From assembly GCA_964612415.1 (NCBI GenBank), contig CAZTCT010000003.1:10477-74476 (forward strand): a stretch of DNA of 64,000 nt. The letters are read 5' to 3'. The stretch is from an uncultured Candidatus Saccharibacteria bacterium. GTDB lineage: Bacteria; Patescibacteriota; Minisyncoccia; Phycocordibacterales; CAYRGE01. Below the pieces are notes generated by a model. It saw only the letters and a program-made list of their open reading frames with translations, ran no database searches and was not told where the DNA came from. Positions 1,402 through 57,639 of the stretch are shown here, in pieces (the stretch's first letter is position 1; every line of letters begins with the position of its first letter). The translations under genes and the position numbers were made by a program.

Positions 1402-1402
1402 C

Positions 1403-2617: not shown

Positions 2618-2653
2618 CTTGCTCTTAGTGCCTCTTTTGTCTACACTCAAAGC

Positions 2654-3763: not shown

Positions 3764-3766
3764 GAT

Positions 3767-8228: not shown

Positions 8229-8264
8229 TCTGTGTTAGACTTTTCTCATATTAAAGGGCAAGAT

Positions 8265-9991: not shown

Positions 9992-10422
9992 TAAAGGGGG
10001 ACCTTCTCTACTTCTTCCCCAGTAATTTATGGGGGGATATATTTGATACTACAAGCAAAGAGTTGCCTTTGCGGGCTGAAAGTCTGGAGGCAATCATAGC
10101 AAAGGAAGGAGATGATCTGGCTCATTTGTATACGCTTCTCAAAAAAGGAGGCATAATCTGCGTCAAAACATCCAGCGAGCGCAAAACGCTAAACTCCATA
10201 AAGCAGCAGGGATTCCTCCCTGAGAGCACTTATCTTCTATATCCGAGCGCTGACCTACCAAGATTTATTATTCCCAAAGGCGATGTCTGCGCACTTGGAT
10301 TTTCCATGGGAGCAATTAGCGTTGGTGCTCGGTTTGGAGGTATCTTTCGGTCTTTTGCCAAAAAGTCCTTTTTTGCACCTATGAAAGTTATGTGTGAGTA
10401 TGCGATTTTTGCAAAAAAATGA
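9976..10422 (+). CDS. hypothetical protein (148 aa), translationally coupled between methyltransferase and kinase-like genes
   Basis: Overlaps upstream gene by 16 nt and downstream gene by ATGA (10419-10422); LLKKGGIICVKT reminiscent of MTase fold but no clear motifs. Confidence 0.4.
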   Translation: MQEDLIKGDLLYFFPSNLWGDIFDTTSKELPLRAESLEAIIAKEGDDLAHLYTLLKKGGIICVKTSSERKTLNSIKQQGFLPESTYLLYPSADLPRFIIPKGDVCALGFSMGAISVGARFGGIFRSFAKKSFFAPMKVMCEYAIFAKK

Positions 10423-11237
10423 TTGAACAATTTAAAAAAGCCATACACGCACGCTCAGACCTTTTTCCTGGCATCGAGGAAGGAGAACTGGGCTTTACCA
10501 AATTTTGCCAGCGGATAGCAGGCCCAGATACCAAGGTCTTATTTTTTGTTACCCATAAAAAGAAGCCGCTATGCATCATAAAGATCATGAGAGAAAATTC
10601 TTTTAATTGGAGGCTAAAACAGGAAGCTGAAACTCAAAGAAGACTTTCAGAAAAAGAACTCAATTTTGTACCAGAGGTATATTTTGATGGAGAAATTGAT
10701 GGAAGGTATTTTTATGCAGAGCAGGTGATTATTGGAGATCCTTTAACCAAACATGATGCACAAAAAAGCGAAGACCTAATAATCAGGACAGTAGAATCTT
10801 TCCCAACCAGTGGAGCTATCCAGAGCTTGCATCTTTATAAAATTTTTAAGCAATGCAACATAGCCGACGAGAACTTCAAATTTTTGTTGGGCGTTTTTGG
10901 GGACAGAGAAATTACTTTTAAAAAGGGTATTACGCACGGTGATTTTGGTCTTCCAAATCTTATAAAAACAGAGCAAGGCGTATATGCTATTGATTGGGGT
11001 CGTGCAAACGAAAAGCCTCTTTGGCTCATTGACGCGGTCTATTTCTTGGTCCGAGTTAGGGGTATTAAAGACTTGAATGATTGGGAAAAGAGAGGTGTGC
11101 CAGCCCTTATTGAGCATTCGTCTATTGATAAAGTGACTGCAAAATCATTGTATTGTGCCTCAATTCTTTTTGAAATCCTTTATAAAAAATATCCCGCTGA
11201 ATACACTAACGTTGTAAAACAAATAAGTTTCTCATGA
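10419..11237 (+). CDS. phosphotransferase of the APH/choline-kinase (protein-kinase-like) fold
   Basis: Brenner-type motif GITHGDFGLPNLI followed by AIDWGRAN (HGDxxxxN...D); 272 aa. Confidence 0.6.
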   Translation: MIEQFKKAIHARSDLFPGIEEGELGFTKFCQRIAGPDTKVLFFVTHKKKPLCIIKIMRENSFNWRLKQEAETQRRLSEKELNFVPEVYFDGEIDGRYFYAEQVIIGDPLTKHDAQKSEDLIIRTVESFPTSGAIQSLHLYKIFKQCNIADENFKFLLGVFGDREITFKKGITHGDFGLPNLIKTEQGVYAIDWGRANEKPLWLIDAVYFLVRVRGIKDLNDWEKRGVPALIEHSSIDKVTAKSLYCASILFEILYKKYPAEYTNVVKQISFS

Positions 11238-12331
11238 AAATTCTCGTTCTGACAAGTGATCTCATAGATCGGCATGGGTGGGGGAGATATTCTCTTGATG
11301 TTATTGATGCGCTTGAGAAAGAAAATGTCGAGGTTGTCGTTGGGATGGGCAGGAAAGGTCTGAATGATACTGACAGAGAAGCTTTGCGTATCCTGCCAGC
11401 GTGGGGTAATAATTGGCGGAATTATTTTTGCGCATTTGTGTACGCACTGAGGTTGCGTCGGTATGCAAAGGACTGCGATTATATCCATGTCTTTGTTGAG
11501 CCGTATGCATATATAGCATATTGGCTGGCACTTCTTTCAAAGAAAAAATATATTATCACCACACACGGATCCTATGGACTCGTTCCTTTTCGTGGGGAAA
11601 TTATAAAATATTTTCATAAAACCGCTTTTTCTCGTGCGCACAAGATTGTTTGCGTGAGCAGTTATACAAAGGAACGCCTTACTGAATTTGGGTTTACTAA
11701 TTTGATAACGATTAACAACGGCATCAATGTGGGGGGAATGAACATTTCGAATAACCCAACATTTGATAAGAGGGAGAATTTGATACTGAGCGTTGGAGCC
11801 TTGAAATACAGAAAAGGACAGCATGTTTCAATCGAAGCGTTTTCTCGTATCGCAAAACTCGTTGCAGATGCCCGATATTATATTGTTGGTGACCAAGACG
11901 ATAAACCATATTACGCTAGATTAAAACAAATGGTGAAAGATTTGAACATTGAAGATAGGGTAGTCTTTCTCTCTGCAATTCCTAGCAGCGAACTTGCAGA
12001 TCTATATAAGAAAGCGAAAGTATTCGCCCTGCCTTCTATTAGCAGAGGCCCTTATTTTGAAGGATTTGGCCTTGTCTATTTAGAGGCAAATGCGTTCGGT
12101 CTTCCTGCTATAGGGAGTCGTGAGTCAGGAGCAAGAGATGCGATAAAAGATGGCGAGACCGGGTTTCTTGTCGCACAAAATGATGTTGATTCTCTTGCGC
12201 GGGCAATGAGTTCGCTGCTCCAAGATAATTTCCTTTGGAAAAAAATGAGTGAATGTGGTACCTTATGGGCCAAGGAACACGACTGGGAGCTTGTTATAAA
12301 AAAATATATCTCACTTTATCAAACACGATGA
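11234..12331 (+). CDS. glycosyltransferase family 4
   Basis: MKILVLTSDLIDRHGWGRYSLDV; FEGFGLVYLEANAFGLPAIGSRESGARDAIKDGETGFLV. Confidence 0.85.
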   Translation: MKILVLTSDLIDRHGWGRYSLDVIDALEKENVEVVVGMGRKGLNDTDREALRILPAWGNNWRNYFCAFVYALRLRRYAKDCDYIHVFVEPYAYIAYWLALLSKKKYIITTHGSYGLVPFRGEIIKYFHKTAFSRAHKIVCVSSYTKERLTEFGFTNLITINNGINVGGMNISNNPTFDKRENLILSVGALKYRKGQHVSIEAFSRIAKLVADARYYIVGDQDDKPYYARLKQMVKDLNIEDRVVFLSAIPSSELADLYKKAKVFALPSISRGPYFEGFGLVYLEANAFGLPAIGSRESGARDAIKDGETGFLVAQNDVDSLARAMSSLLQDNFLWKKMSECGTLWAKEHDWELVIKKYISLYQTR

Positions 12332-13662
12332 AAACTATTTTCATAAGCAGCTTTCATGCTTTAATCTCAAGAAACATTTTGCAAACCTCGATGCTTGCTG
12401 ATTTGGGGCAAAATGTGAAGGTTGTTATTTTGACCCACGAAAAGAAGACAGAATACTTTAAGCGTACTTTTGTTGGCAAGAATGTTTTCATTGAGGGGGT
12501 TGATATTCCCAAAAGGCCACTCGAAAATCTGATGCAGATGATATCATTTGGCCTTGTCGGCGTGGAGAATCACATTGTTCGAGGGTGGAAAACAGAAAGA
12601 AAATATTTTAAGTATTACTTCACCCATGCTCTTTATGCGCTGTGCTCCAGATTTTTTATATTTCATAAAGTGTTTCGTTCCCTGGCAAAGAGATATCTTC
12701 GAACCGACATCTTCGAGGGTCTTTTTCTGAAATATAATCCAGATTTAGTTTTTGCGACGGATAGTTTTGATAATGCAGATAGACTTCTTCTCCTTGAGGC
12801 GGAAAAGAAAGGGATTAAGACTTTAGGAATGATTCGCTCTTGGGACAACCCTACAACAAAAGGGGTATTCCTCCCAAACCCCAGTCATATTGTTGTGACT
12901 AACGATGTGGTCAAAGAGGAAATGATCGCAATCCATCATGTCCAAAAGGAAAAAGTGACCGTTGTGGGAGTCCCTCATTACGATAAGGTACTTCAGCCGA
13001 GGACTATTTCTAGGGGAGAACTTTTCAAAAAAGTGGGCCTTGATCCAAAAAAGAAAACAATATTTTTTTCTCCTGGAGGCAAGATGTTATACAAACATGA
13101 TGCAGAAGTAATGGCTCTTTTTAAAAAACAGCTTGATGAGAGAAGCTTTTCTGAGCCCATACAATTTTTAGTAAGCATACAACCTGGAGATACAATCAAC
13201 ACCGCAACCATTGAGGGTGATTCAAGATTTATATTGTATCAGTTTGGCACAGAAGTTACTGAACGAAGGAAAGAGAATGAAATGTCCCCAGATGAAAATA
13301 ATCGATTAAATGATCTCATTTTTTATTCTGATATTTTAGTGACACTGGTTTCAACAATGGCGATTGATGGTACTGTGTTTGGGAAGCCTGTTATCGTCCT
13401 GGGCTTTGACCCAAAGCCAGGTCTCCCTGACAAAATGTCTAAATTCGCAAAGTATAAACATTTCGAGAAATTCCTTGGAACTGGATTTGTGACTGTGGCA
13501 CATTCCAAGGAAGAGTTTGCGCAAGAGGTGAACGCATTTCTCAGTAACCCAGATCTTAGTAAAGAAAAACGCGAGGCGCTTATGAGTCGCTATATTTATA
13601 AGCTCGATGGGAATTCAACAAAAAGACTTACGGAATGTGTTTTGAGCGTGCTTGGTGATTAG
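12328..13662 (+). CDS. GT-B fold transferase, TagF/CDP-glycerol glycerophosphotransferase-like or capsule polymerase-like (family uncertain)
   Basis: ATGA overlap start at 12328 (MKTIFISSFHALISRNIL); no GT4 E-x7-E motif; C-terminal block LIFYSDILVTLVSTMAIDGTVFGKPVIVLGFDPK resembles TagF-family pattern. Confidence 0.4.
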   Translation: MKTIFISSFHALISRNILQTSMLADLGQNVKVVILTHEKKTEYFKRTFVGKNVFIEGVDIPKRPLENLMQMISFGLVGVENHIVRGWKTERKYFKYYFTHALYALCSRFFIFHKVFRSLAKRYLRTDIFEGLFLKYNPDLVFATDSFDNADRLLLLEAEKKGIKTLGMIRSWDNPTTKGVFLPNPSHIVVTNDVVKEEMIAIHHVQKEKVTVVGVPHYDKVLQPRTISRGELFKKVGLDPKKKTIFFSPGGKMLYKHDAEVMALFKKQLDERSFSEPIQFLVSIQPGDTINTATIEGDSRFILYQFGTEVTERRKENEMSPDENNRLNDLIFYSDILVTLVSTMAIDGTVFGKPVIVLGFDPKPGLPDKMSKFAKYKHFEKFLGTGFVTVAHSKEEFAQEVNAFLSNPDLSKEKREALMSRYIYKLDGNSTKRLTECVLSVLGD

Positions 13663-14441
13663 GGCAACTCAATGAGCTTAATATTCTTTGTGGGCTTTTT
13701 TAAGTGATTGGCAATAAGCCCTTCTTTGAGCTTTTGGTCGTAATCCGTGAGGGTTTGGCTGGTGATATCTTTTGTTCGGTAATACTTTGACCCTGGCTCA
13801 TCCCATTGCTTTGTGCGAGGAAGATGTTCATTTTGCTTTAGTTTTTCTAGGCAGTGAACAAGCGCAGTAGCTCCTTTCGCAATCGTCTTACAACCAATGG
13901 TATGAACGGTATCCTCGGCTTCTATTTCTGGGCGAACATGACAAATAATGTCTCCCGTGTCGACTCCAGCGTCAATGTGCAAAAGGGTCGCGCCAACATA
14001 CTCAAGCTCTTCATTTACGAACGGCCAAAAATTTGTTCCACTTCCTCGGTAGTACGGCGAAAGGCCTAAATGTAAATTTATGAATTTCCCACTAGGGATC
14101 AGAGAGAGCAGCGGATCTTTTATGATACTTGAGCCAAATACAAATCCTGCGTCAGGGTGGAAATCTTTCACGGCCGTATAGACCATAGGGAGATTTACTT
14201 CTGAGTAGAGTAAGGGAAGCGTCTTTGCCCAAAAGACGTCATTCCCAGGGAAGAACGATTGCTCTGTTTGAAAGCGCTCAACAAAAACCTCTTCTTGCTT
14301 AGTCAGGCTGCCCGGTGCCTCCGATGGGGCGTCACTTTTTTTGCCCTCAACAATTACCAGCGCCTCATCTGTATTTTTTGTGAGAGCGTTTGCGATAAAT
14401 TTGTGGCGGATCGCATTACTTGTGAAGATAACGATTTTCAT
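13659..14441 (-). CDS. sugar N-formyltransferase (formyl_trans_N family)
   Basis: FINLHLGLSPYYRGSGTNFWPF (HxSLLPxxRG-type) and LLHIDAGVDTGDII; 260 aa, size of WlaRD/VioF-type sugar formyltransferases. Confidence 0.7.
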   Translation of the reverse strand: MKIVIFTSNAIRHKFIANALTKNTDEALVIVEGKKSDAPSEAPGSLTKQEEVFVERFQTEQSFFPGNDVFWAKTLPLLYSEVNLPMVYTAVKDFHPDAGFVFGSSIIKDPLLSLIPSGKFINLHLGLSPYYRGSGTNFWPFVNEELEYVGATLLHIDAGVDTGDIICHVRPEIEAEDTVHTIGCKTIAKGATALVHCLEKLKQNEHLPRTKQWDEPGSKYYRTKDITSQTLTDYDQKLKEGLIANHLKKPTKNIKLIELP

Positions 14442-15418
14442 TGTGCCTCTAGTTTAGCAAGATTTTGTTTTAGTGTCGGCGCGTCATCCCAAGGCATTGG
14501 TTCATATCGTCCAATTTCAAATGGGCTGTTGTTAGGGGTATTCACAATCGGGTCTACTGTAAAGGCAAGACGATATTGGGTGCTCTCTTGTAAAAAGGTG
14601 GGAGTGAAACGATCCTGTGCTCCTCCGAAAGGGTAGCTGAATGCGTCAACTGTCGTGGCAAAAGTTTCTTCAAGGTATTTTTTAGGAGCGATGACCTCTT
14701 TCACAAAATCTTCCTCACTTAAATTGGCTGTTGCAACCGAGACATGGGTGTGGCTATGCGTGCCAATAGAGTGTCCCATTCCAACTATTTCAGACACCTG
14801 CTCTTTGGTCAGATGTATTTCATTGAGGATGTTCGGGAACTCGCTTAATAAAAGTTCTTCATAAATTCGAATGAGTACTTTTCGAGCTATTTTATGGGGG
14901 AGTTCATATTTGAATAACTTTTTGATCCGAGCAATAACTTCAGCTGGGTTGTCTCCACTTTGAAAAGTCATATCTTGGGGGGTCTCAAATCCCACTTCCT
15001 TTGAGATGAGGCGAAGCGTTTCAAGAAATTTTCCTATACCATGATGGGCAATACTATAATGAATGATCTGAGGGTTTGCTGGTAATTTGTCTTCAAAAAT
15101 ACAAGTAGGAATGAAAAATACTCCCTTAACCCCAGCTTCAGCAAGAATGCGTGCCGCATTATAGTGACCTGCTAAGCCATCATCGAATGTTAAGAGTACT
15201 CCTGTTTTTTTAGACTCAATTTTAGTATCTCCAGAATAAATTTCACGGATTTCATCAAGAGAGAGGGGATGGTATGTGTTCTTGAACAAAAAAGTATGTG
15301 CCCGGAGTTGGTCTTCGGTGTTCCCGTAGATTCTCGGGAAGCGCCCGATTGAAGAGGTGTTTTTAATGTAGTGGTAGCACAAGGCCAAAAAGCTCATGGA
15401 GAAGATGATAACACGCAA
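14438..15418 (-). CDS. polysaccharide deacetylase (CE4/NodB family), N-terminal membrane anchor
   Basis: NodB motif LLTFDDGLAGHY; hydrophobic N-term MRVIIFSMSFLALCY; 4-nt overlap with the formyltransferase gene. Confidence 0.8.
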   Translation of the reverse strand: MRVIIFSMSFLALCYHYIKNTSSIGRFPRIYGNTEDQLRAHTFLFKNTYHPLSLDEIREIYSGDTKIESKKTGVLLTFDDGLAGHYNAARILAEAGVKGVFFIPTCIFEDKLPANPQIIHYSIAHHGIGKFLETLRLISKEVGFETPQDMTFQSGDNPAEVIARIKKLFKYELPHKIARKVLIRIYEELLLSEFPNILNEIHLTKEQVSEIVGMGHSIGTHSHTHVSVATANLSEEDFVKEVIAPKKYLEETFATTVDAFSYPFGGAQDRFTPTFLQESTQYRLAFTVDPIVNTPNNSPFEIGRYEPMPWDDAPTLKQNLAKLEAQ

Positions 15419-15466
15419 AAAGACCTTTACTAAATTGGGATTTCCTGCATAATTACGATACTTTTT

Positions 15467-16195
15467 ATGCCTGTTTTATATGAGAATACCCTAGCCATTA
15501 TCCCTGCGAGGGGTGGAAGCAAAGGCATACCCCGAAAGAATATCAAGGAGCTTTCAGGGAAGCCCCTCATCGCGTGGTCTATTGAGGCGGCGCTTGAGGC
15601 AGATGCAACCAAGCGGGTTGTTGTTGCCACAGACGATTCTGAGATTGCCCAAATCGCAAAAAAATACGGAGCTGAGGTGCCATTCTTACTCCCAAGTGAG
15701 CTAACACAAGATGACTCTTCTATTCTTGATGTAATAAAGTATGTCCTAGAATGGTTTAAAAAAGAGATGGGAGAAGACTATAGCCAGGTCTTGTTTCTTG
15801 AGCCAACAAGCCCACTTCGCACACCACAACATATCAAGGAGTCGATTGATTTGTTTAATAACAAAGATGCAGATTCTGTGGTAAGTGTTATGCGCGTGCC
15901 AGGACATTTTAGCCCACACTGGCAGTTTGTGCTTGATAACGACAGCGCTTTGAGTATTTTCACAAATGAGAATATTAGAAACATCATTCCTAGACGGCAG
16001 CAATTACCAGCTACTTATACCCGAGATGGAGCAATTTATCTTTTCAAATCCAATTTACTTTTTAACGAAACGCCAGGTATTTATGGGGAGCGGGTGTTTG
16101 CGTATGTGATTGACCCCAAATATACGGTCGATATAGACGAACCTAGCGATTGGGATATTGCCGAAAAAAAGATGGAGAAACGAAACAAAGGATAA
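15467..16195 (+). CDS. neuA: CMP-nonulosonic acid synthetase (acylneuraminate cytidylyltransferase family, NeuA/LegF/PseF-like)
   Basis: LAIIPARGGSKGIPRKNIKELSGKPLIAWSIEAAL...VVVATDDSEIAQIAKKYGAEV (CTP_transf_3 signature). Confidence 0.8.
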   Translation: MPVLYENTLAIIPARGGSKGIPRKNIKELSGKPLIAWSIEAALEADATKRVVVATDDSEIAQIAKKYGAEVPFLLPSELTQDDSSILDVIKYVLEWFKKEMGEDYSQVLFLEPTSPLRTPQHIKESIDLFNNKDADSVVSVMRVPGHFSPHWQFVLDNDSALSIFTNENIRNIIPRRQQLPATYTRDGAIYLFKSNLLFNETPGIYGERVFAYVIDPKYTVDIDEPSDWDIAEKKMEKRNKG

Positions 16196-16200
16196 GCTAT

Positions 16201-17250
16201 ATGAATCCAAGTATACAAATTGGAAAAAGGAAGATAGGTGCTGATCACAAGCCTTTTGTGATTGCTGAAATTGGGATTAATCACGAAGGGAGTATTGAAA
16301 AAGCAAAAAGGATGATCAGGGATGCGGCGAAAAATGGTGCTGAGTGCGTAAAGTTTCAATCGCACGTCATTGAGGATGAAATGAGCAATGCTGCAAAAAG
16401 AGTTGTGCCTGGCAATGCGAAAGAGTCGATATGGGACATTATGGAGCGATGTGCTTTTTCTGAGAAACAAGAGCGTGAGCTCAAGACCTATGCCGAGAAA
16501 CTAGGATTGATGTATCTTTCCACTCCATTTTCTCGTGCGGCGGCTGATCGGCTACATAGAATGAACGTGAGTGCTTTCAAAATAGGATCAGGTGAATGTA
16601 ACAACTATCCTCTCATTGAGCATATTGCAAAATGGAAGAAGCCAATGATTGTCAGTACCGGAATGAATGATATTGCTTCAATCAAAAAAACAGTTGCGAT
16701 ACTCGAAAAATACAAAGTTCCATACGCACTTCTGCATGTGACTTCAATGTACCCAACTCCTTACGATAAGGTACGCCTCGGCGCGCTTGAGGAATTGCGC
16801 AGGGAGTTTCCACGCGCTGTTCTTGGTCTTAGCGATCATTCAATCGGGAATTATACGTGCTATGGAGCTGTTGCTCTAGGGGCTTCTATACTGGAAAAAC
16901 ATTTTGTGTCCAATCGACGCTGGAAAGGGCCAGATGTACCGATATCAATTCTCCCCGAAGAATTGTCTGAGTTGATTAAAGGAGTCAATGCAATTTACGC
17001 AGCAAGAGGAGGGCAGAAGGAGATTCTAAAAGAAGAAGCGCCAACAATTGCTTTTGCATATGCGACGGTGGTAACAATAAGGGAAATTCCCGCTGGGGCT
17101 ATTATTACAAAAGAAGACGTTTGGGTTAAAAGACCAGGGACTGGAGAAATCCCAGCAGAACATCTGCCTCAAATTATCGGGAAAAGAGCAAAACGTCCAT
17201 TGGCCCAAGATGAGCAGTTATCCTGGAAAGACATAGAGGAAAATAAATAA
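16201..17250 (+). CDS. neuB: N-acetylneuraminate (nonulosonate) synthase with C-terminal SAF domain (NeuB/LegI/PseI family)
   Basis: Start ATG 16201 preceded by AAGGA; IGADHKPFVIAEIGINHEGSIEKAKRMIRDAAKNGAECVKFQSH; C-term SAF domain. Confidence 0.85.
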   Translation: MNPSIQIGKRKIGADHKPFVIAEIGINHEGSIEKAKRMIRDAAKNGAECVKFQSHVIEDEMSNAAKRVVPGNAKESIWDIMERCAFSEKQERELKTYAEKLGLMYLSTPFSRAAADRLHRMNVSAFKIGSGECNNYPLIEHIAKWKKPMIVSTGMNDIASIKKTVAILEKYKVPYALLHVTSMYPTPYDKVRLGALEELRREFPRAVLGLSDHSIGNYTCYGAVALGASILEKHFVSNRRWKGPDVPISILPEELSELIKGVNAIYAARGGQKEILKEEAPTIAFAYATVVTIREIPAGAIITKEDVWVKRPGTGEIPAEHLPQIIGKRAKRPLAQDEQLSWKDIEENK

Positions 17251-17252
17251 AT

Positions 17253-18428
17253 ATGAAGAAGAGAAAAATTTGTGTCATTACGAATACTCGCGCGGATTAC
17301 TCTCGTTTAAGAACGCTTCTTTTCGCGCTGCGGGACCGGAAGGATGTTGATCTTTTTTTGTGCGTGGCAGGGGCGCATCTCCTTTCTGTTGGCGGGTATA
17401 CCATTGAGGAAATTAAGCGGGATGGTTTCAATATAGACTATCGTATTTACACGGAAGTAGATGGGCATGTACTTTCAACAATGACCAAATCAACAGGACT
17501 TGCGATCATTGAGTTCTCCAGTTTTTTTGAAAATCATCGTCCTGACATTGTTGTTGTGCATGGGGATCGCTTTGAAGCGTTTGCTGCTGCTACCGCCGCC
17601 TCAATGATGAATATTTATGTTGCGCATCTACAAGGAGGCGAGATAACGGGGACGATAGATGAACATTTGCGACATGCCATAACAAAGCTTGCACATTTTC
17701 ATTTTGCATCAAACGAACAAGCCAAAGAGCGTATCATTGAATTGGGCGAAAACCCAGAGTATGTTTTCAATGTAGGATGTCCATCTGTTGATGTTCTCCT
17801 TTCTGCGCCCAAATATCCTTTTAGTAAGTTAAAGAAAGGGCTTGCTGACAAGATCAAAAAAGAGGGATGGCTTGATGGTTTTGATGGAGAATTTTTACTC
17901 TTGGTTCAGCACCCTGTCACGACAGAATTCAGCAAAGCTGCTGAGGAAATGGTAGAGACGCTACATGCACTTAGGAAATATCCTCGACATATTCTAGCTC
18001 TCTGGCCTAACATAGATGCTGGGGCTGAGCTTATGGTGCAAGAGATTAAAAAATTTGAGCGAGAAGTTGATGGGAAATTTGCAGTAGTAAACAGCATGCC
18101 CATGGAAGTTTTTGTGAATGTCATGCGGCACACAACTGTCATGGTAGGGAATTCTTCTGCAGGGGTTCGAGAAGCTTGCTATTTCGGGACTCCTGTAGTT
18201 AACGTGGGCACACGACAAGAGGGACGCGTAAAAACACCCAATGTTATAAATGTTCCCGATGAGCGCAAGGCAATTGAGAAAGCTATTAAAATGCAGCTAA
18301 AGAGTGGACGGTTTAAGCCCGTGTACCCCTATGGAGAGGGTGGTGCAGGAGAGAAGATCGCTGACATCCTTGCTACAATCCCACTGGGTAACTCTCAGAA
18401 AAGACTTATTTCTAAAGTCCAAAATTAA
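17253..18428 (+). CDS. neuC: UDP-N-acetylglucosamine 2-epimerase (hydrolysing), NeuC/LegG family
   Basis: KICVITNTRADYSRLRTLLFAL...DIVVVHGDRFEAFAAATAASMMNIYVAHLQGGEITGTIDEHLRHAITKLAHFHF. Confidence 0.85.
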   Translation: MKKRKICVITNTRADYSRLRTLLFALRDRKDVDLFLCVAGAHLLSVGGYTIEEIKRDGFNIDYRIYTEVDGHVLSTMTKSTGLAIIEFSSFFENHRPDIVVVHGDRFEAFAAATAASMMNIYVAHLQGGEITGTIDEHLRHAITKLAHFHFASNEQAKERIIELGENPEYVFNVGCPSVDVLLSAPKYPFSKLKKGLADKIKKEGWLDGFDGEFLLLVQHPVTTEFSKAAEEMVETLHALRKYPRHILALWPNIDAGAELMVQEIKKFEREVDGKFAVVNSMPMEVFVNVMRHTTVMVGNSSAGVREACYFGTPVVNVGTRQEGRVKTPNVINVPDERKAIEKAIKMQLKSGRFKPVYPYGEGGAGEKIADILATIPLGNSQKRLISKVQN

Positions 18429-49826: not shown

Positions 49827-49877
49827 TGTGGATAAGTTTGTTTCTGGAGTGGTGTGTGGTGCGCTAGAATAAAGCCA

Positions 49878-51650
49878 ATGAAGAAAATAACGCACTATTC
49901 GCGCGTTGCTCTCGATACGCTAGTTTTTTCTCTGTCTGGGCTTGCGCTTGGAGCGGCCGGAATGTTCTCGTTCTTTTTCTTGATGACGGCTTTCCCTGAC
50001 GCTGGCACTGTAGTGGTGCCACCAACACTTCATGGACCACAGATTGCATTTGCAGCACCACCGGCTGGATATACGGAATTGAAAGGATTTGCATGGGCAG
50101 GATCACACAACAGTGGAACGATCGGATCGCCGGATATTGGAAGTGGGTGGATTAGTTTCAATAGGAAAGATTGCGATACCGATGGGGATGGCGATAACGA
50201 TGTTGCTGCATGTGGTGCACTTGGGAGTGCTGTGCCTGACTATCAAGTCTCTGTTGATACGAGCAATTACTCCAATGAGCTACCAAACCCAACCACAGGT
50301 GATTTTACCGGGTATGCCTGGAGCCCAAACATTGGGTGGATATCTTTTAATCCAGCTGACCTTGTTGGGTGTCCTGTTGGTGCAGCAAACCCTGATGGAG
50401 ATGGTACGACTTGTGAGGCAACAATAAATTGGTATACCGGCACTGTGGCTGGCTGGGCTCGCGTTCTTTCAAACGATACCGCCGCGGGATGGAGCGGATG
50501 GATTCGGCTGGACCTCCCTGTTCCTTATGGGGGGTATTCTGTTAAGCCAGCGTTCACTGGGTATGCCTGGGGCGCAGACAATGTTGGTGGGTCTCCGACG
50601 CCTGGGGTTGGGTGGATAAGTTTCAGCAGTTTTGATTGTGACACTGATCAGAATGGCACCATTTCTGGTGGTTTGCCCGCGTGTGGAACTACCGGGAATC
50701 CAATTGCGCAATATGGGGTTACTTTAGGCAGTATTGCCCCTGGGCTTCCTATTGTGTTTGCTCCAACCGAGATTGTTCTAGATACCCCTCCTGGGTATGC
50801 GCAAGCAAATCTAATATACGAATCCTACAACGGGTTTTACCCAATTGATCCTGATGATGAGCCAGTTCAGTATGGCTTTGACTGGGATGGCGATGGGCTT
50901 GGGTATGTATGGGAAACCAACCCCGTTAATGGTCTACCGGTCTATATCGGTGCGCCAGGCACTGGAGGTACGTCAACGCCTCGATGGACCACCTTGGGCA
51001 TGAAGACATTTAATGTGAAGTTGCGTGATGGCGATCTGAATGAATCAGCCGTACGCTCATATTCTATAAATGTGATTCCTCCACCACCAACAGCAACCTT
51101 TACTGTCCAGCCGACCAATGCGCTTGGTACGGGAATCACAGGAAGTACAGTGGGAATTTTGGATGGGGGTACTCCAGGAGCTTTTCTTTATTCATGGACA
51201 AGTAATCATACAACGTCATGTGCTGTTACCCGAAATCCAGGATCTGTAGCGGTTGCTTCGTCTGGTTCATCAAATTCATCTGGGTCAGGGGCAGATACCC
51301 CTGCGACCAACACTACACAGTATTCAATTACCTGCCAGGGATTGCCATTTTCTAATCCCGCTAGTGTCACCATTAATCGCTCTGTCACTGTAAACACCAC
51401 ATGTTGGAACAATATTGACGACGACCCTGCGGGGAGGATTGGCAATGGACTTTGTGACTATCCATCTCAATCCTGTCCGGGAGTGATTGCTGGAGATCCA
51501 AATTGTATGGACCCTGATCCAGCAACATATCCTCATGAGGGTGGCACAGGAGTGGCCGCGGCGTGTGGCAACGGGGTGTGTAACGTTGAGGCAGGGGAGG
51601 GGCCATTTACCTGCACCACCGACTGCAGGCAGAACTTCCAGGAGCGATAG
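49878..51650 (+). CDS. large secreted/cell-surface repeat protein (GxAW...GWISF repeats, Cys-rich C-terminus)
   Basis: Signal/TM ALDTLVFSLSGLALGAAGMFSFFFLMTAF; four or more repeats of G[FY]AW(x4-10)GWI[SR][FL] with DCDTD(G/Q)(D/N)G; PPPP linker; C-terminal CxxC-rich region. Confidence 0.55.
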   Translation: MKKITHYSRVALDTLVFSLSGLALGAAGMFSFFFLMTAFPDAGTVVVPPTLHGPQIAFAAPPAGYTELKGFAWAGSHNSGTIGSPDIGSGWISFNRKDCDTDGDGDNDVAACGALGSAVPDYQVSVDTSNYSNELPNPTTGDFTGYAWSPNIGWISFNPADLVGCPVGAANPDGDGTTCEATINWYTGTVAGWARVLSNDTAAGWSGWIRLDLPVPYGGYSVKPAFTGYAWGADNVGGSPTPGVGWISFSSFDCDTDQNGTISGGLPACGTTGNPIAQYGVTLGSIAPGLPIVFAPTEIVLDTPPGYAQANLIYESYNGFYPIDPDDEPVQYGFDWDGDGLGYVWETNPVNGLPVYIGAPGTGGTSTPRWTTLGMKTFNVKLRDGDLNESAVRSYSINVIPPPPTATFTVQPTNALGTGITGSTVGILDGGTPGAFLYSWTSNHTTSCAVTRNPGSVAVASSGSSNSSGSGADTPATNTTQYSITCQGLPFSNPASVTINRSVTVNTTCWNNIDDDPAGRIGNGLCDYPSQSCPGVIAGDPNCMDPDPATYPHEGGTGVAAACGNGVCNVEAGEGPFTCTTDCRQNFQER

Positions 51651-53676: not shown

Positions 53677-53752
53677 GCCACCTTAGCTCAGTTGGTAGAG
53701 CAACTGTTTTGTAAACAGTAGGTCCCCGGTTCAAGCCCGGGAGGTGGCTCCA
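53677..53752 (+). tRNA. tRNA-Thr (anticodon UGU), CCA encoded
   Basis: Cloverleaf: acceptor GCCACCT/AGGTGGC, D-arm GCTC-AGTTGGTA-GAGC, anticodon stem ACTGT/ACAGT with loop TTTGTAA (TGT at 34-36), T-arm CCCGG-TTCAAGC-CCGGG, 3' TCCA. Confidence 0.9.
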
Positions 53753-53947: not shown

Positions 53948-53968
53948 GGGAAGTTTATGTGTTTTGTA

Positions 53969-53974
53969 TATAAT
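53969..53974 (+). promoter_or_regulatory. -10 box TATAAT 6 nt upstream of pheS ATG (leaderless-type)
   Basis: TATAAT 53969-53974; ATG 53981. Confidence 0.4.
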
Positions 53975-53980
53975 GGGCGG

Positions 53981-54724
53981 ATGAAGGAATCTTCTCAAAA
54001 GCCCTCAGAAGGACATCTCCATCCCGTGACATTGCTTACCAATGAGCTTCTTGCTGCCTGTACCAAACTTGGGTTTGAGATTGTTACAGGCCCTGAAATA
54101 GAGGAGGAGTATTTCAATTTTGATGCGCTTAATGTTCCTAAAGATCATCCTGCCCGAGACATGCAGGACACCTTTTGGCTTAAAGGAGAGCCGGGGAAGC
54201 TACTTCGTACTCATACCTCCGCAGTGCAGGCACGTTTCTTACGTGAACATGCTCCACCGCTTCGTATCGTTGTGCCAGGCAAGGTGTTTCGTTATGAAGC
54301 GACTGATGCTACCCATGAGACACAATTTTTCCAATTAGAAGGACTTGCAATTGATAAAGACATTACACTTGCACAGCTTAAGGAAGTATTGGAAACACTC
54401 TTTAAAATACTTTTTGGCGACAATGCAATGATTCGTTTCCGTCCGGCGTTCTTTCCCTTTGTTGAACCCGGAGTGGAGGTTGATGTGTCTTGTTTTCTTT
54501 GCAGTCAAAAAGGCTGTTCGCTATGCAAACAGTCTGGGTGGATAGAAGTTATGGGAGCGGGGATGGTCCACCCCAATGTGCTTTCAGAAGCTGGTATTCA
54601 TCCTCGTGAGTGGCGTGGGTTTGCGTTTGGATTCGGCATTGACCGACTTGTGATGCTTAAATACGGGATTGAGGATATCCGCCTTTTCTACTCAGGGGAT
54701 CTTCGTCTGATTAATCAATTTTAA
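53981..54724 (+). CDS. pheS: phenylalanine--tRNA ligase alpha subunit (short form)
   Basis: FNFDALNVPKDHPARDMQDTFWL (motif 1 region); GWIEVMGAGMVHPNVL; FGFGIDRLVML (motif 3). Confidence 0.85.
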   Translation: MKESSQKPSEGHLHPVTLLTNELLAACTKLGFEIVTGPEIEEEYFNFDALNVPKDHPARDMQDTFWLKGEPGKLLRTHTSAVQARFLREHAPPLRIVVPGKVFRYEATDATHETQFFQLEGLAIDKDITLAQLKEVLETLFKILFGDNAMIRFRPAFFPFVEPGVEVDVSCFLCSQKGCSLCKQSGWIEVMGAGMVHPNVLSEAGIHPREWRGFAFGFGIDRLVMLKYGIEDIRLFYSGDLRLINQF

Positions 54725-54728
54725 AAAT

Positions 54729-57089
54729 ATGCTCATTTCCTATAGGTGGCTTTCTACATATTTCAAAGACCCGTTGCCTGCACCCCGTGACCTTGCTGAT
54801 GTTATCACTATGCATGCGTATGCGGTTGATCGGGTTTATGAACAAGGAGGAGACACCATTTTAGATATAGATGTGTTGCCAAACCGTGCGCCTGACAGTC
54901 TTTCTCATCGAGGCGTTGCAAAAGAAGTCGCTGCGCTTTTACAAAAAGAGCTTGTGTTGCCCGCACGCTTCCTCCCCGAGAAATTATCTGAACATGAGGG
55001 GATAAACATCAAGATTGAGAATTTGTATGAATGCGGACGGTATGTGGGAAGGGTGATACACGGTGTTAAGATTGGCCCTTCTCCTGATTGGCTTGTTGAG
55101 CGGCTCACTGCCGTTGGACAAAAGTCTATTAACAACATTGTTGATATTACAAATTACATTCTTTTGGACATGGGGCAGCCGATGCATGCTTTTGATCTGG
55201 ATAAAATATCCGGGAAAGAAATTTCTGTCAGGAAGGCAAAAGACGGTGAGCATATAAGCACACTTGATGGGAAAGATGTTGTACTTACATCAACAATGCT
55301 TGTTATTGCTGATACGGAAGGACCACTTGCCATTGCGGGGGTTAAAGGGGGTAAAAAAGCAGAGATTACTAGCGAAACGAAAAGCATCGTTCTTGAGGCT
55401 GCTCATTTCAACTCTGTTTCTGTGCGGAAGACCGCTCGAAGCACTGGGATTTTGACTGACTCTTCGAAACGTTTTGAAAACGGCATTACCCCAGAGTTGG
55501 CTGGGTATGCCATGGATGAAGCATCTGCGCTCATCTATGAAATTTTTCCTGAAGCGCAAGTTTCTCCGACGATCGACCAGTATCTTTGGAAACCAAATCC
55601 ATATACCACAGGACTGAGCACCGCCGAAGCCAATGCCATACTGGGGACAAAGCTCGACGATGACCAAGTTAAAGAAGCCCTAGAGCGCGTTGGGTGCACT
55701 GTGTATTTTGAGAGGAATCCTATTTCGCGCGTGTTCACTGTCGCAAAACAAGGCGTAGGAGCTACTTACAAAAATGGAGCGAGCATACAATATCAGGCGC
55801 CACACTTATTTGATTGCTCGTCTTTTACTGCGTATGTTTTTGCTCAAGCAGGAGTGAGTATCCCGAGAATGACCGTGGATCAATATATGTATGGTGCAGA
55901 TATTGGAGAGCATGATCTTTCCCTCGGGGACTTGGTATTTGCTAATACTAAATCTGGACAGATCCATCATGAAGGGAAAGAATTTTTCCCTGGCAAAGCA
56001 GTGCCTGAAGGAGTTGATCATTGCGGGATCTATCTTGGCGATGGAAAGATCGTGCATGCTACACGGCACGGAAAAGGTAAGGTAGTTATAGAGGAGCTGG
56101 CAGGTAGCGAAGCGTTTGAGAATATCATTGGGTATAGAAGGATTCCCGAAGTCCATGCCCCAAGGTTTGTGGTGGTAGTGCCGGCAGAGAGACTTGATCT
56201 GCGGGACGTTGTCTCGCTCTCTGAAGAAGTGGGACGTATTGTCGGCTATGATACATTACCGGACAGTATACTTTCAAAATTATCTCAGTCTCCACAAATC
56301 AACAAGAGTTTCTACTACACACAAGCAATCAGGCAAACCCTTAAGGAAGAAGGATACTCTGAGGTAATAACCTATGCGTTTACAGACAAAGGAGAGATTG
56401 AGACTGCAAATCCAATTGCATCAGACAAAGGTTTTCTTCGCCCCAATCTGACCAGTGGAATCACAAAAAGTCTCGAAATGAATGCGCGAAATGCTGATTT
56501 AATCGGTGAGAAGTGCATCAGAATATTTGAAATTGGGACTGTGTTTACAAAAACGAGTGAGCACCTCTCGTTTGGTATTGGGGCATGGCATCCGAAGGGC
56601 TATAAAGATAAAGCGATAGATGAAATCACTCGTGTACTCGGTGTCCTTGAGAAAAAGCACGGGTGTGTGTTTGGGGGCAGCTCGCAAGGAGATAAAGAGA
56701 AAGCAATTTACGAATCAAATTTTAAAGAAATCATTCTTTCCTCACCGGAACCGTCGGACTACGGTTCACTCTTTGAAGCACAAGAGAAAGTGATTGAATA
56801 TAAAAAGATATCTCCGTATCCGTTCGTTACTCGTGATATCGCATTTTGGGCAAGTGGCGGGACGAAAGAGGAGGAGGTAATGGCCACCTTAGTATCTAGC
56901 GCTGGACCGCTTTTAATCCGAGAGCCGAGACTCTTTGATGTATTTGAGAAGAAAGATGAAGGGAAGGTATCATATGCGTACAGACTTGTTTTTCAATCGT
57001 ATGAAAAAACGCTCACTGATGATGAGGTGAATAAGCACATGGAAAATGTAGTACGTGCGGTTGAAGAAAAAGGGTGGACAGTGAGATGA
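54729..57089 (+). CDS. pheT: phenylalanine--tRNA ligase beta subunit carrying an inserted NlpC/P60 (papain-like) domain
   Basis: B1 N-term MLISYRWLSTYFKD; B3/4 ...MHAFDLDKISGKEISVRKAKDGEHISTLDGKDVVL...; B5 start; then DCSSFTAYVFAQAGVSIPRMT...GDLVFANTKSG...DHCGIYLGDGKIVHATRHG (NlpC/P60 Cys-His-His) at ~55750-56110; B5 end/B6-7 resumes at RFVVVVPAERLDLRDV; C-terminal FDX-ACB. Confidence 0.85.
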   Translation: MLISYRWLSTYFKDPLPAPRDLADVITMHAYAVDRVYEQGGDTILDIDVLPNRAPDSLSHRGVAKEVAALLQKELVLPARFLPEKLSEHEGINIKIENLYECGRYVGRVIHGVKIGPSPDWLVERLTAVGQKSINNIVDITNYILLDMGQPMHAFDLDKISGKEISVRKAKDGEHISTLDGKDVVLTSTMLVIADTEGPLAIAGVKGGKKAEITSETKSIVLEAAHFNSVSVRKTARSTGILTDSSKRFENGITPELAGYAMDEASALIYEIFPEAQVSPTIDQYLWKPNPYTTGLSTAEANAILGTKLDDDQVKEALERVGCTVYFERNPISRVFTVAKQGVGATYKNGASIQYQAPHLFDCSSFTAYVFAQAGVSIPRMTVDQYMYGADIGEHDLSLGDLVFANTKSGQIHHEGKEFFPGKAVPEGVDHCGIYLGDGKIVHATRHGKGKVVIEELAGSEAFENIIGYRRIPEVHAPRFVVVVPAERLDLRDVVSLSEEVGRIVGYDTLPDSILSKLSQSPQINKSFYYTQAIRQTLKEEGYSEVITYAFTDKGEIETANPIASDKGFLRPNLTSGITKSLEMNARNADLIGEKCIRIFEIGTVFTKTSEHLSFGIGAWHPKGYKDKAIDEITRVLGVLEKKHGCVFGGSSQGDKEKAIYESNFKEIILSSPEPSDYGSLFEAQEKVIEYKKISPYPFVTRDIAFWASGGTKEEEVMATLVSSAGPLLIREPRLFDVFEKKDEGKVSYAYRLVFQSYEKTLTDDEVNKHMENVVRAVEEKGWTVR

Positions 57090-57090
57090 C

Positions 57091-57639
57091 ATGAAAAAAG
57101 TTTTGTCGGTCCCATATATATCCCAACGCAAAGAAACCCAAGATCCATTTTGGTGGGAGAGGGCATGTGGTATTTTCGTGGTTTCAATGCTGCTTAAGTA
57201 TTTTGGGGAATCATTCAAATCGATAGACGATCTACTTAGTGAAGGGGTAAAAACGGGAGGGTATATTCAAAATGTCGGGTGGCGGCACGACGCTCTTGTT
57301 GATTTGGCGCGCGCCCATGGCGTTGCGCTTGAACGAAGAGAATATAAAGCTCAGTCGTCTAATGACGGGGAAACACTCCTTGTGCAAGGACTAGAAGATA
57401 TTGTAAGTGCAATTGATGGAGAAAAACCTGTGGTTGTTTCTGTGACACGCCCAAGTGGGTCTTCGCACCTCGCGGTAGTGGTTGGGTACGACAAACAGGA
57501 GGGTCATAAAGGGTTCTATATTCACGACTTTGATCCCGACGCAGAAGGGCCTGGGGAGGGGCAATTTGTACCTGAGGACTTGCTTAAATCATCATGGCGC
57601 AGACTTGCTATTTTTTGTAAAAATAAGCCCGCAAAATAA
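57091..57639 (+). CDS. Peptidase_C39-like (BtrH-like) domain protein
   Basis: VPYISQRKETQDPFWWERACGIFVVSMLLKYFG (C39_2-like VPxIxQ...CG signature) and downstream His in SSHLAVVVGYD; start 1 nt after pheT stop. Confidence 0.55.
   Translation: MKKVLSVPYISQRKETQDPFWWERACGIFVVSMLLKYFGESFKSIDDLLSEGVKTGGYIQNVGWRHDALVDLARAHGVALERREYKAQSSNDGETLLVQGLEDIVSAIDGEKPVVVSVTRPSGSSHLAVVVGYDKQEGHKGFYIHDFDPDAEGPGEGQFVPEDLLKSSWRRLAIFCKNKPAK

Follow-up and report, generated by a model that had tools for sequence, protein, structure and literature searches.

Few known proteins are as conserved as the aminoacyl-tRNA synthetases (aaRSs), and to our knowledge each appended domain found in them so far has revealed new biology, including editing, cytokine signalling, and regulation. 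The closest described relative of the protein considered here is the beta subunit of the bacterial (αβ)2 phenylalanyl-tRNA synthetase (PheRS), represented by the TIGR00472 model and the structures 1PYS/2IY5, 3PCO, and 2RHQ. A second PheRS type is the mitochondrial-type monomer (FARS2, 3CMQ; NCBIfam pheS_mito, 'PheS-related mystery ligase SrmL'). Enzymes with the two other domains found at this locus are the NlpC/P60 DL-endopeptidases (Acd24020 7cfl, MepS/Spr, LytE, CwlO, YkfC) and the Peptidase_C39_2/C39 enzymes. The latter include the Bacillus anthracis YvpB-like protein 3erv and the double-glycine leader peptidases LahT150, PCAT1, and ComA. No publication combining NlpC/P60 or C39_2 with an aaRS was found, and the initial annotation of this DNA knew of none either.

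The window, meaning the whole analysed stretch of 64,000 nucleotides, carries on its forward strand the pheS-pheT operon, a housekeeping operon, of a Patescibacterium of the Paceibacteria type. The alpha subunit gene pheS (53957-54724) matches Pfam tRNA-synt_2d at 2.7e-94 and TIGR00468 at 294.6 bits (cut-off 237.45). Its product is short, at most 255 aa with in-frame stop codons upstream, and lacks the N-terminal coiled coil, unlike the usual bacterial PheS. Four nucleotides separate the pheS stop from the ATG of pheT (54729-57089), which encodes a 786-aa beta subunit with a nested NlpC/P60 domain. The pheT stop TGA (57087-57089) is followed by one base and then by the ATG of a 182-aa open reading frame (57091-57639), exactly as first annotated. 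This downstream gene is probably translationally coupled to pheT, another departure from the usual bacterial arrangement.

PheT scores 444.7 bits against TIGR00472 pheT_bact, over the equivalog cut-off of 402.65, and PDB PheRS beta chains match it at 1e-65 to 1e-69. Like the bacterial (αβ)2 beta subunits, it has the B1, B3/4, B5, catalytic-like, and FDX-ACB regions in canonical order and lies immediately 3' of pheS. The B3/4 editing domain (residues 102-273; 55032-55547) is matched by Pfam B3_4 at 8.7e-66 and 221 bits. Its editing-site residues are intact, with Escherichia coli R244, N254, H265, G315, E334, and T354 corresponding to K/R132, N142, H153, G204, E223, and T243, conserved in 115-120 of the best 120 homologues. 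B5 is split into an N-terminal half (residues 290-328; 55596-55712; Pfam B5 positions 3-32) and a C-terminal half (residues 479-515; 56163-56273). The latter retains the VP..R.D....EE motif, of which P485, R488, D490, E499, and E500 show no variation across 43 homologues. The catalytic-like module (CLM, B6/B7) and the FDX-ACB anticodon-binding domain follow at 56292-57086 (tRNA_synthFbeta 7.9e-11; FDX-ACB 4e-20). In contrast to most bacterial beta subunits, the window PheT has no B2 domain: tRNA_bind (PF01588) gives no match in it, and residue 42 aligns to position 158 of the TIGR00472 model. B2 is typical of bacterial PheT and not universal, and two homologues of about 900 aa possess it. By its sequence, pheT encodes a genuine beta subunit of bacterial PheRS, with predicted aminoacylation and editing activity. 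The database names 'C40 family peptidase' and 'PheRS beta subunit-related protein' need correcting, as these proteins are the organism's real PheT.

A further difference from known beta subunits is the NlpC/P60 (C40) cysteine hydrolase domain within B5 (residues 329-478; 55713-56162). It is matched by Pfam NLPC_P60 (PF00877) at 62 bits and 5.8e-17, with a gathering score of 23. The initial annotation placed the insert correctly in B5 and underestimated its size, which is about 150 aa and not about 130. It sits between Pfam B5 positions 32 and 33, corresponding to a point between residues 442 and 451 of the Staphylococcus haemolyticus PheT structure 2rhs_B. The motifs named earlier are all present and hold the catalytic residues: DCSSF contains Cys363 (codon 55815-55817), DHCGIY His431 (56019-56021), and HATRHG His443 (56055-56057), while GDLVF occupies residues 400-404. 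With the insert present, B5 is matched in two stretches at 39 bits; its removal in silico gives a single contiguous match over positions 3-67 of 67 at 53.6 bits.

The suggestion of a separately folded lobe is borne out by structure prediction. The AlphaFold2 model of the insert has a pLDDT of 87.6, and Foldseek aligns it to the Clostridioides difficile DL-endopeptidase 7cfl (E 5e-12, target-normalised TM 0.88, 35% identity), which the sequence also matches at 4e-14. Among 65 PDB matches at E<=1e-3, the 50 listed are all NlpC/P60 enzymes. The insert is predicted from this model to be a distinct lobe with the papain-like alpha+beta fold, and it shares the Cys-His-His triad order of the DL-endopeptidases. 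Its close sequence and structure relatives, among the matches listed, are all peptidoglycan DL-endopeptidases, including Acd24020, MepS, LytE, CwlO, RipB, and the YkfC-type 3h41. Unlike these enzymes, the domain is nested in an aaRS, is not secreted, and has no LysM, SH3b, or coiled-coil targeting modules. No export signal or cell-wall targeting was found for this internal domain of a cytoplasmic synthetase; such features are typical of autolysins and do not define NlpC/P60. The insert further differs from the characterised enzymes in a 'GAS..YDAPxxFDCSS' motif and an extra conserved, family-specific loop at residues 405-428. The loop and the 'YDAPxxFDCSS' variant suggest a specificity differing from that of characterised DL-endopeptidases.

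An assembly or frameshift error joining a separate NlpC/P60 gene into pheT was foreseen as a possible refutation, and this explanation now has practically no probability left. The gene is a single uninterrupted open reading frame with unchanged GC content across the insert, an identical protein is encoded on an independent contig, and B5 becomes contiguous again on excision. Moreover, the same architecture occurs in all of the best 120 homologues (43-50% identity), in 80 of 80 metagenomic loci, and altogether in hundreds of independent assemblies from NCBI, JGI, ENA, and Logan. The artefact is refuted by the intact frame, the independent assemblies, and the restored B5.

The insert is found at the same position in more than 200 PheT clusters of Paceibacteria-type Patescibacteria, and 231 of the 242 proteins with an insert-type domain of at least 120 bits are PheT. 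The triad Cys, His, and His are kept in 119, 119, and 118 of the best 120 homologues (~99%). Among 83 locus-encoded PheTs, all have the Cys and the first His; 76 have the full C-H-H triad, and in the remaining 7 Y or F takes the place of the third residue. Mean pairwise identity is 52.8% for the insert, 50.1% for the whole PheT, and 41% for the CLM; the inserted domain is as conserved as the essential synthetase domains. One might regard the insert as a non-catalytic structural or regulatory lobe, or as a passenger tolerated in a permissive loop. The B5 hairpin is indeed a permissive surface loop, and the lineage of PheT P0119 has lost all three catalytic residues (S/R/Y) and keeps the domain. 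However, such a role is very improbable given a triad retained in ~99% of sequences diverging to ~45% identity, an insert more conserved than the protein average, and, as described below, retention of the module as a gene of its own after the rest of PheT was lost.

The 182-aa protein encoded downstream is a cytoplasmic papain-fold enzyme of the Peptidase_C39_2 type (PF13529; 5.5e-11, 43.7 bits, gathering score 24). The earlier C39_2/BtrH-like call holds for the C39_2 part, whereas the protein has no match to the BtrH_N profile (PF14399). Its clan CA centre consists of the catalytic Cys26 (57166-57168) and His126 (57466-57468) with the oxyanion Gln12 (57124-57126) and Asp146 (57526-57528); across 24 members Q12, C26, and H126 never vary, and conservation of D146 reaches at least 90%. 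The protein has the C39-type papain fold, and among its fold relatives are PeiR, a pseudomurein endoisopeptidase, Alr0975, which cleaves glutathione, and a C39-like effector of a T6SS, with at most 27% sequence identity to any solved structure. Unlike 3erv, LahT150, PCAT1, and ComA, it is of a minimal 160-200-aa type, is cytoplasmic, carries neither an ABC-transporter fusion nor a secretion signal, and is tied to PheT::NlpC/P60. A C39 double-glycine leader peptidase of ABC exporters was considered and rejected because of the missing transporter fusion or linkage and the missing GG-leader substrate gene: no linked ABC transporter, GG-leader, or precursor-peptide gene occurs in the window or in ~80 related loci.

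The two enzymes are genetically linked, as had been proposed. A C39_2 gene lies downstream on the same strand in 44 of 70 insert-bearing loci, directly adjacent in 35 of these. In contrast, it is found at none of 78 insert-less pheT loci, which include 12 evaluable loci of Patescibacteria (for these, Fisher p = 3e-5, for loci that are not phylogenetically independent). The adjacency persists where the C39_2 proteins are only 29% identical, and in the fusion proteins P0220 and P0237 NLPC_P60 and Peptidase_C39_2 occur in one chain. At the P0119 locus, where the triad is dead, gyrB directly follows pheT and the C39_2 gene is missing. Insert and C39_2 belong together, judging by the conserved adjacency, the gene fusions, and this one joint loss. 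The partnership is not obligatory in cis, since a C39_2 gene is missing from the surrounding 6 kb in 26 of the 70 insert-bearing loci and from the neighbourhood of one of the stand-alone genes described next. None of the PADLOC models of anti-phage defence proteins matched the insert, the C39_2 protein, or the P0220 fusion.

In several lineages the module exists apart from PheT. Loci L167 and L171 have, at the pheS position, a mitochondrial-type monomeric PheRS (tRNA-synt_2d + FDX-ACB) whose best PDB match is human mitochondrial PheRS at 3e-60, and which shares the alpha core and FDX-ACB of that type. Adjoining it, in the same rpsB-tsf...gyrB-thrS-dnaE synteny, is a 222-233-aa stand-alone B5::NlpC/P60 gene, without a C39_2 neighbour in L171. 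In these lineages the beta gene survives only as the B5::NlpC/P60 mini-gene, which otherwise still adjoins C39_2. The window enzyme is of the alpha + beta type, unlike these monomers, which serve here only as a natural experiment. At L164, B5::NlpC/P60 is followed by C39_2 and then gyrB, and no PheRS gene adjoins; at L163 a fusion sits beside ftsW, murG, mraY, and a Peptidase_S11 gene, and here too PheRS genes are absent from the immediate surroundings. In the stand-alone forms the chain begins at once with the B5 half and has no signal sequence. Their nearest neighbours are different PheT-embedded inserts, which indicates that they escaped several times. Both B5 halves are retained in the stand-alone modules, which usually lie beside a PheRS gene (L167, L171). 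Nevertheless, the B5 score falls from 53.6 to 39 to 15 bits and then to none, and the remnants lose PheRS-specific motifs. The adjacency, the stand-alone and fused forms, and the joint loss together mark the pair as a two-enzyme module that is under selection and can exist apart from aminoacylation.

These forms bear directly on the reading preferred in the initial annotation, an aminoacyl-tRNA-coupled activity. The thiol of NlpC/P60, of C39_2, or of both would pick up the aminoacyl moiety of (mis)acylated tRNA(Phe) or Phe-AMP, either hydrolysing it as extra proofreading or transferring it to an amine acceptor. In more than 200 protein clusters the domain forms part of the PheRS chain itself, and the kept B5 halves and the usual PheRS proximity could reflect a real functional tie to PheRS or tRNA. 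Moreover, the mitochondrial-type PheRS of the stand-alone-module lineages lacks the B3/4 editing domain, and retention of the module there would make sense if it edited in trans. The chemistry is also established: papain-fold thiol enzymes such as LRAT and BtrH-type transferases can form acyl-thioesters from esters. However, insert-bearing PheTs show full conservation of the B3/4 editing site, and therefore this genome has no editing gap to fill. The module persists, stand-alone or fused, without an adjoining PheRS in L163 and L164, the B5 remnants lose their PheRS motifs, and the near relatives of the insert are all peptidoglycan amidases. We know of no NlpC/P60 or C39 enzyme that acts on aminoacyl-tRNA, and the net charge of the insert is indistinguishable from that of the other domains. 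The tRNA-coupled reading gained no positive support, some of these observations speak against it, and it is considered unlikely.

A more specific version, in which the module is a hitherto undescribed thiol-based PheRS partner acting on Phe-tRNA(Phe), mis- or N-acylated tRNA(Phe), or Phe-AMP, with the B5 halves docking onto PheRS, is somewhat less likely still. As a second proofreading step it would become the only one in lineages with an editing-less monomeric PheRS; as an aminoacyl transferase it could feed Phe into a cell-envelope or small-molecule acceptor. The locus resembles other cases of aaRS domain accretion, in which an extra hydrolytic domain is attached to a synthetase, and, as with the free-standing aaRS-editing relatives (B3/4-derived CtdA, AlaX, YbaK), a synthetase piece (here B5 + insert) also occurs as an autonomous gene. 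Unlike those relatives, the insert descends from cell-wall amidases and is a papain-like thiol enzyme without a known tRNA-editing fold, and homology implies no editing activity for it. Searched against Pfam and NCBIfam, the insert and the downstream protein match NlpC/P60 and C39_2 only, and none of the trans-editing folds AlaX, YbaK/ProX, Dtd, and CtdA.

The fallback of the initial annotation, a moonlighting peptidoglycan-type hydrolase, fits the data better than the tRNA-coupled reading, with the activity placed in the cytoplasm: neither PheT nor the C39_2 protein has an N-terminal signal sequence, and the NlpC/P60 enzyme must therefore act there. The explanation we favour, to which we give about an even chance as a whole, is a PheT-borne module of two thiol hydrolases with a cytoplasmic amide substrate. 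The ancestor of the Paceibacteria-type clade would have acquired a complete NlpC/P60 domain in the hairpin loop in mid-B5, with PheT acting chiefly as a scaffold that is expressed constitutively, and the module taking no part in tRNA chemistry. The two enzymes would act together or sequentially, NlpC/P60 cutting a gamma-Glu-diamino acid bond and C39_2 a second bond. The substrate would most probably be a gamma-D-glutamyl or peptidoglycan stem-type peptide; this best guess draws on homology and on a single suggestive neighbourhood, that of L163. Bacillus subtilis YkfC, a cytoplasmic NlpC/P60 enzyme that recycles murein tripeptide, is a precedent for action on free murein peptides. Possible roles are muropeptide turnover or salvage, or trimming of cell-wall precursors, in organisms unable to make most amino acids.

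A general cytoplasmic peptidase pair with no cell-wall link would also suit two cytoplasmic proteins in Patescibacteria, which rely on scavenged amino acids. Such a pair would serve peptide or amino-acid salvage, for example by freeing Phe or another residue from gamma-glutamyl peptides or from imported ones, or process a specific peptide or protein, as in C39 double-glycine-like cleavage. The family-specific loop and motif changes of the insert hint at a non-canonical substrate. On the other hand, the NlpC/P60 relatives are specific for gamma-D-Glu-diamino acid bonds, the pair has neither an ABC transporter nor a precursor-peptide gene linked to it, and no conserved Gly-Gly site occurs at the insert boundaries. 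These points make a peptidase pair of this kind rather improbable.

On the favoured hydrolase-module reading, an entire clade of host-dependent, ultra-small bacteria incorporated a predicted-active cell-wall-type cysteine hydrolase into an essential synthetase and has kept it, along with its dedicated partner enzyme, over a very long period. The swap of the beta subunit for a mitochondrial-type PheRS is a natural deletion experiment from which the hydrolase module alone was saved. What the two thiol enzymes cut is a concrete biochemical question that bears on the acquisition or recycling of cell-wall and amino-acid building blocks in genome-reduced Patescibacteria; the minority tRNA-linked reading, if true, would mean a new kind of tRNA-linked chemistry. 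The insert family itself is a distinct NlpC/P60 subfamily, its stand-alone and fused members scoring 158-218 bits per domain against no more than about 81 bits for the other NlpC/P60 proteins listed.

The window protein belongs to bacterial PheT as a synthetase. It scores 444.7 bits against the bacterial pheT equivalog model (cut-off 402.65) and gives Pfam matches to B3_4 (8.7e-66), a split B5, tRNA_synthFbeta, and FDX-ACB. Its gene, pheT (54729-57089, + strand, 786 aa), forms a tight + strand operon with pheS (53957-54724, +), which encodes the PheRS alpha subunit, and with an ORF of 182 aa (57091-57639, +) of the Peptidase_C39_2 type on the 3' side of pheT. Only 4 nt separate the pheS stop from the pheT ATG, and the TGA stop of pheT is followed by one base and then by the ATG of the 182-aa ORF. 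The GC content is flat throughout this region. Upstream of pheS lie rpsB, tsf, and one tRNA-Thr, while gyrB follows the 182-aa ORF, and thrS and dnaE are encoded by the other strand. The tRNA-Thr (anticodon UGU, 53677-53752, +, found by Rfam/ARAGORN) lies within the ~430-nt gap separating pheS from a 151-aa ORF after tsf, and is the sole Rfam or ARAGORN match in the 64-kb window.

From its sequence, the synthetase part of the window PheT looks fully functional. When E. coli PheT (from NC_000913) is mapped onto the family of 120 insert-bearing PheT sequences, the editing residues R244, N254, H265, G315, E334, and T354 correspond to K/R132, N142, H153, G204, E223, and T243 in the window PheT, and these are kept in 115-120 of the 120 sequences. 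Because of this conservation, the insert is not compensating for a decayed editing site, and its role as a replacement for a degenerate one is rejected, the B3/4 editing site being intact. The B2/tRNA_bind domain was not found in the window PheT by Pfam and equivalog model searches; two homologues of ~900 aa, P0026 and P0051, retain it (tRNA_bind/OB). The window PheS is short, at most 255 aa, and is devoid of the N-terminal coiled coil, which binds tRNA in other bacteria. The stretches 53957-54724 and 54729-54850 represent a minimised PheRS, with PheS lacking the coiled coil and PheT lacking B2.

The NLPC_P60 model of Pfam matches PheT at roughly residues 333-470 with 62 bits against a gathering score of 23, and several peptidoglycan-endopeptidase models match the same residues. 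All of the signature motifs quoted by the initial annotation exist in the sequence, where they mark Cys363, His431, and His443. Solved PheRS beta chains align to the query up to residue ~323-326 and resume at ~480; the gap maps to between residues 442 and 451 of S. haemolyticus PheT, in the middle of B5. The insert breaks the Pfam B5 model between positions 32 and 33, so that the unspliced protein matches B5 in two pieces (39 bits), whereas in-silico deletion of residues 329-478 rejoins these into a single match of 53.6 bits that spans positions 3-67 of the 67. The alignment gap and the restoration of B5 upon excision together establish a clean nested insertion of ~150 aa (residues 329-478, nt 55713-56162, +). 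The location within B5 proposed initially thus stands, and the insert is somewhat larger than the ~130 aa then estimated.

Modelled on its own with AF2, the insert gives a confident structure (pLDDT 87.6). Its top fold match in the PDB is C. difficile Acd24020 (7cfl; 35% identity, TM 0.88), followed by MepS, LytE, CwlO, RipB, SagA, and YkfC-type proteins, and every one of the best matches is a peptidoglycan DL-endopeptidase. The loop 405-428 and the motif GAS..YDAPxxFDCSS are specific to the subfamily. A conserved Gly-Gly processing site, sought as a target for C39-type cutting, was absent from the insert boundaries in the homologue alignment. The insert, the C39_2 family, and the remaining domains of PheT were also compared in net charge and pI, and these values say nothing on tRNA binding since the tRNA-contacting PheT domains are equally acidic.

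The identical PheT protein occurs on one independent contig, and all of the 120 best database homologues have PF00877 together with PheT domains (43-50% identity, full coverage). Their source names, where available, indicate Yonath-, Campbell-, Lloyd-, and Pacebacteria/Paceibacterota, and such proteins carry automatic database labels of 'C40 family peptidase' or 'PheRS beta subunit-related'. Scanning metagenomes with a profile built from the insert alone gave 80 loci, and in 80/80 the domain lies at ~residue 335-480 of a PheT-length ORF. In addition, 1.84 billion representatives were searched exhaustively with a profile, which returned 171 clusters at E<=1e-30. Among 242 proteins with an insert-type domain of at least 120 bits, 231 are PheT, nine are stand-alone, and two are fusions; the stand-alone and fused members score 158-218 bits per domain, and the other NlpC/P60 proteins in the list reach ~81 bits at most. 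Six proteins (P0123 of 1183 aa, P0124, P0143, P0240, P0246, and P0248) are unrelated, with 5-11 tandem NlpC/P60-like domains per chain, and ranked high in the profile search only because domain scores are summed. A contig scan by B3/4 motifs gave mostly insert-less PheT, with the insert present only in loci L003 and L004, and the rest serves as a negative control. An assembly artefact is excluded by the identical protein on the independent contig and by the same architecture across homologues and loci.

The catalytic residues are retained almost without exception: Cys363 in 119, His431 in 119, and His443 in 118 of the 120 homologues. Among the PheTs encoded by the loci, the Cys and the first His are present in 83/83 and the full C-H-H in 76, the third position being Y/F in seven. 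Pairwise identity averages 52.8% within the insert, compared with 50.1% over the full-length protein; B3/4 is more conserved (60%) and the catalytic-like module less so (41%). An inert passenger domain is rejected, as the triad is conserved in ~99% and the insert identity is above the whole-protein mean; such a reading is highly improbable and ranks below a tRNA-linked role. In the window PheT, an intact PheRS beta subunit houses an NlpC/P60 thiol hydrolase that is itself intact, under selection, and predicted to be active.

Insert-bearing pheT has a genuine partner in the C39_2 gene that follows it. The 182-aa protein matches Peptidase_C39_2 with 43.7 bits (gathering score 24) and is not a member of the BtrH_N family; a specific BtrH-type assignment is rejected. 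A word-indexed search returned two matches, and six with a 24-sequence profile, which reflects low sensitivity and not rarity. Local jackhmmer on the fetched loci recovered a family member in 46. Of the 70 insert-bearing loci whose sequence extends 500 nt or more beyond pheT, 44 have a family member downstream on the same strand: in 35 it immediately follows pheT, in many cases with an overlap, and in nine it is 0.5-4 kb away. None was found within 6 kb of pheT in 78 insert-less loci, among them all 12 evaluable Patescibacteria loci with insert-less PheT (Fisher p = 3e-5, for loci that are not phylogenetically independent). A homologue with only 29% identity to the window C39_2 protein again begins 1 nt after a PheT::NlpC/P60 gene and precedes gyrB. 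Gln12, Cys26, and His126 are invariant in the family, and Asp146 is nearly so. Both PheT and the C39_2 protein lack an N-terminal signal sequence. One PheT, P0119 (L169 27-2366; L170 70-2409), is the only one in the set to have lost all three catalytic residues (Ser/Arg/Tyr); there gyrB follows pheT at a distance of ~250 nt and the C39_2 gene is missing, joint loss being seen in this one case. The insert-bearing PheT and the C39_2 thiol hydrolase form a conserved genetic partnership, and it is very probable that the two constitute a real, active, and coupled two-enzyme module. In L004 (3796-4518), L159 (7357-8082), and L161 (1536-2333), which are also insert-bearing, the gene after pheT encodes a conserved ~240-aa protein of no assigned family, not C39_2, that contains ...KGAETKILGSKEEILELLSKGVVA....

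The B5::NlpC/P60 unit, with or without C39_2, is separable from the rest of PheRS. The representative search yielded short proteins of 199-233 aa that comprise the B5 N-half, NlpC/P60, and the B5 C-half with their own start and stop, and two proteins of 392-397 aa in which the unit is fused to a C39_2 domain (P0220, with both Pfam models above threshold, and P0237, with a C39_2 match of 21.6 bits). Locus L167 keeps the synteny of the window (rpsB-tsf, then the PheRS gene, the module, C39_2, gyrB, thrS, and dnaE), and its beta-subunit gene is cut down to a 233-aa B5::NlpC/P60 gene. Its PheRS (6853-8001, +, 382 aa) is monomeric, with tRNA-synt_2d and FDX-ACB, and among solved structures it is closest to human mitochondrial PheRS (3e-60, with bacterial alpha subunits at 5e-37). 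L171-L173 likewise combine a monomeric PheRS (in L171 at 4794-5963, -) with a stand-alone module; the orientation differs there, and no C39_2 gene adjoins. These mitochondrial-type enzymes of Patescibacteria relatives measure 382-389 aa, occupy the pheS position, and fall slightly short of the NCBIfam thresholds for both pheS_mito and 'PheS-related mystery ligase SrmL'. The four loci show no B3/4 editing domain encoded close by, and a literature search turned up no publication on bacterial monomeric PheRS. L164 has the module followed by C39_2 and gyrB, with no PheRS gene adjoining.

The fusion gene of P0220 (L163 8001-9194) adjoins ftsW, murG, mraY, and a Peptidase_S11 gene of the D-Ala-D-Ala carboxypeptidase type; its surroundings are a cell-division and cell-wall neighbourhood. 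The gene order over L163 1-9194 is ftsW, murG, scpA, scpB, Peptidase_S11, mraY, a CAP-domain gene, and the fusion. By identity, without a formal tree, the nearest neighbours of the stand-alone and fused inserts are different PheT-embedded inserts, which implies that the module escaped from PheT independently several times. In these forms the spliced B5 score decays from 53.6 to 39 to 15 bits and then below detection, the R..D....EE motif of the B5 halves erodes, and the PheRS-type signature is lost.

Because the module survives the loss of the tRNA-handling domains of the beta subunit and occurs away from PheRS genes, its function would not require them, and independence from tRNA chemistry is somewhat favoured. 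The main rival, a tRNA-linked role, draws on the near-universal embedding of the insert-type domain in PheRS, the retention of the B5 halves, and the maintenance of the module in exactly those lineages that have a monomeric PheRS devoid of an editing domain; it is nonetheless considered unlikely. For a module acting apart from tRNA, cytoplasmic hydrolysis of an amide bond in a gamma-D-glutamyl or stem-type peptide may be proposed since every near relative performs it, and B. subtilis YkfC is a precedent for a cytoplasmic NlpC/P60 enzyme. A specific peptidoglycan-peptide substrate, suggested by this analogy and by the position of the L163 fusion among genes for cell-wall precursors, is a tentative assignment, less likely than not. 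A generic role in peptide salvage or processing is ranked below the tRNA-linked role and is rather improbable. The full statement, joining a coupled active module, tRNA independence, and a peptidoglycan-type peptide substrate, has about an even chance of being correct.

The two hydrolases of the window are members of NLPC_P60 and Peptidase_C39_2, respectively. They fall outside the ABC-linked double-glycine peptidases and the known trans-editing folds, and the module proteins had no matches among the PADLOC defence models. In 7.7 million PMC papers and bioRxiv we could not find described this form of aaRS domain accretion, in which an aaRS domain harbours a papain-like hydrolase that has its own partner gene and also exists in autonomous and fused forms. 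The system is unusually well placed for a decisive experiment on function.

In E. coli K-12 (L168, NC_000913 1792267-1797944), nlpC, which encodes a lipoprotein, is located five genes away from pheT (pheT-ihfA-btuC-btuE-btuD-nlpC), which is almost certainly a coincidence. Elsewhere in the window, a 598-aa ORF (49854-51650, +) combines a hydrophobic segment at its N-terminus with repeated GWISF/GWIS motifs and a C-terminus rich in Cys, and looks like a repetitive surface protein. The region 166-18428 is a large envelope-glycan gene cluster with at least six GT4 glycosyltransferases, an NAD-dependent epimerase/dehydratase, a CDP-glycerol glycerophosphotransferase-like protein, NeuB (sialic/legionaminic acid synthase type), and UDP-GlcNAc 2-epimerase.
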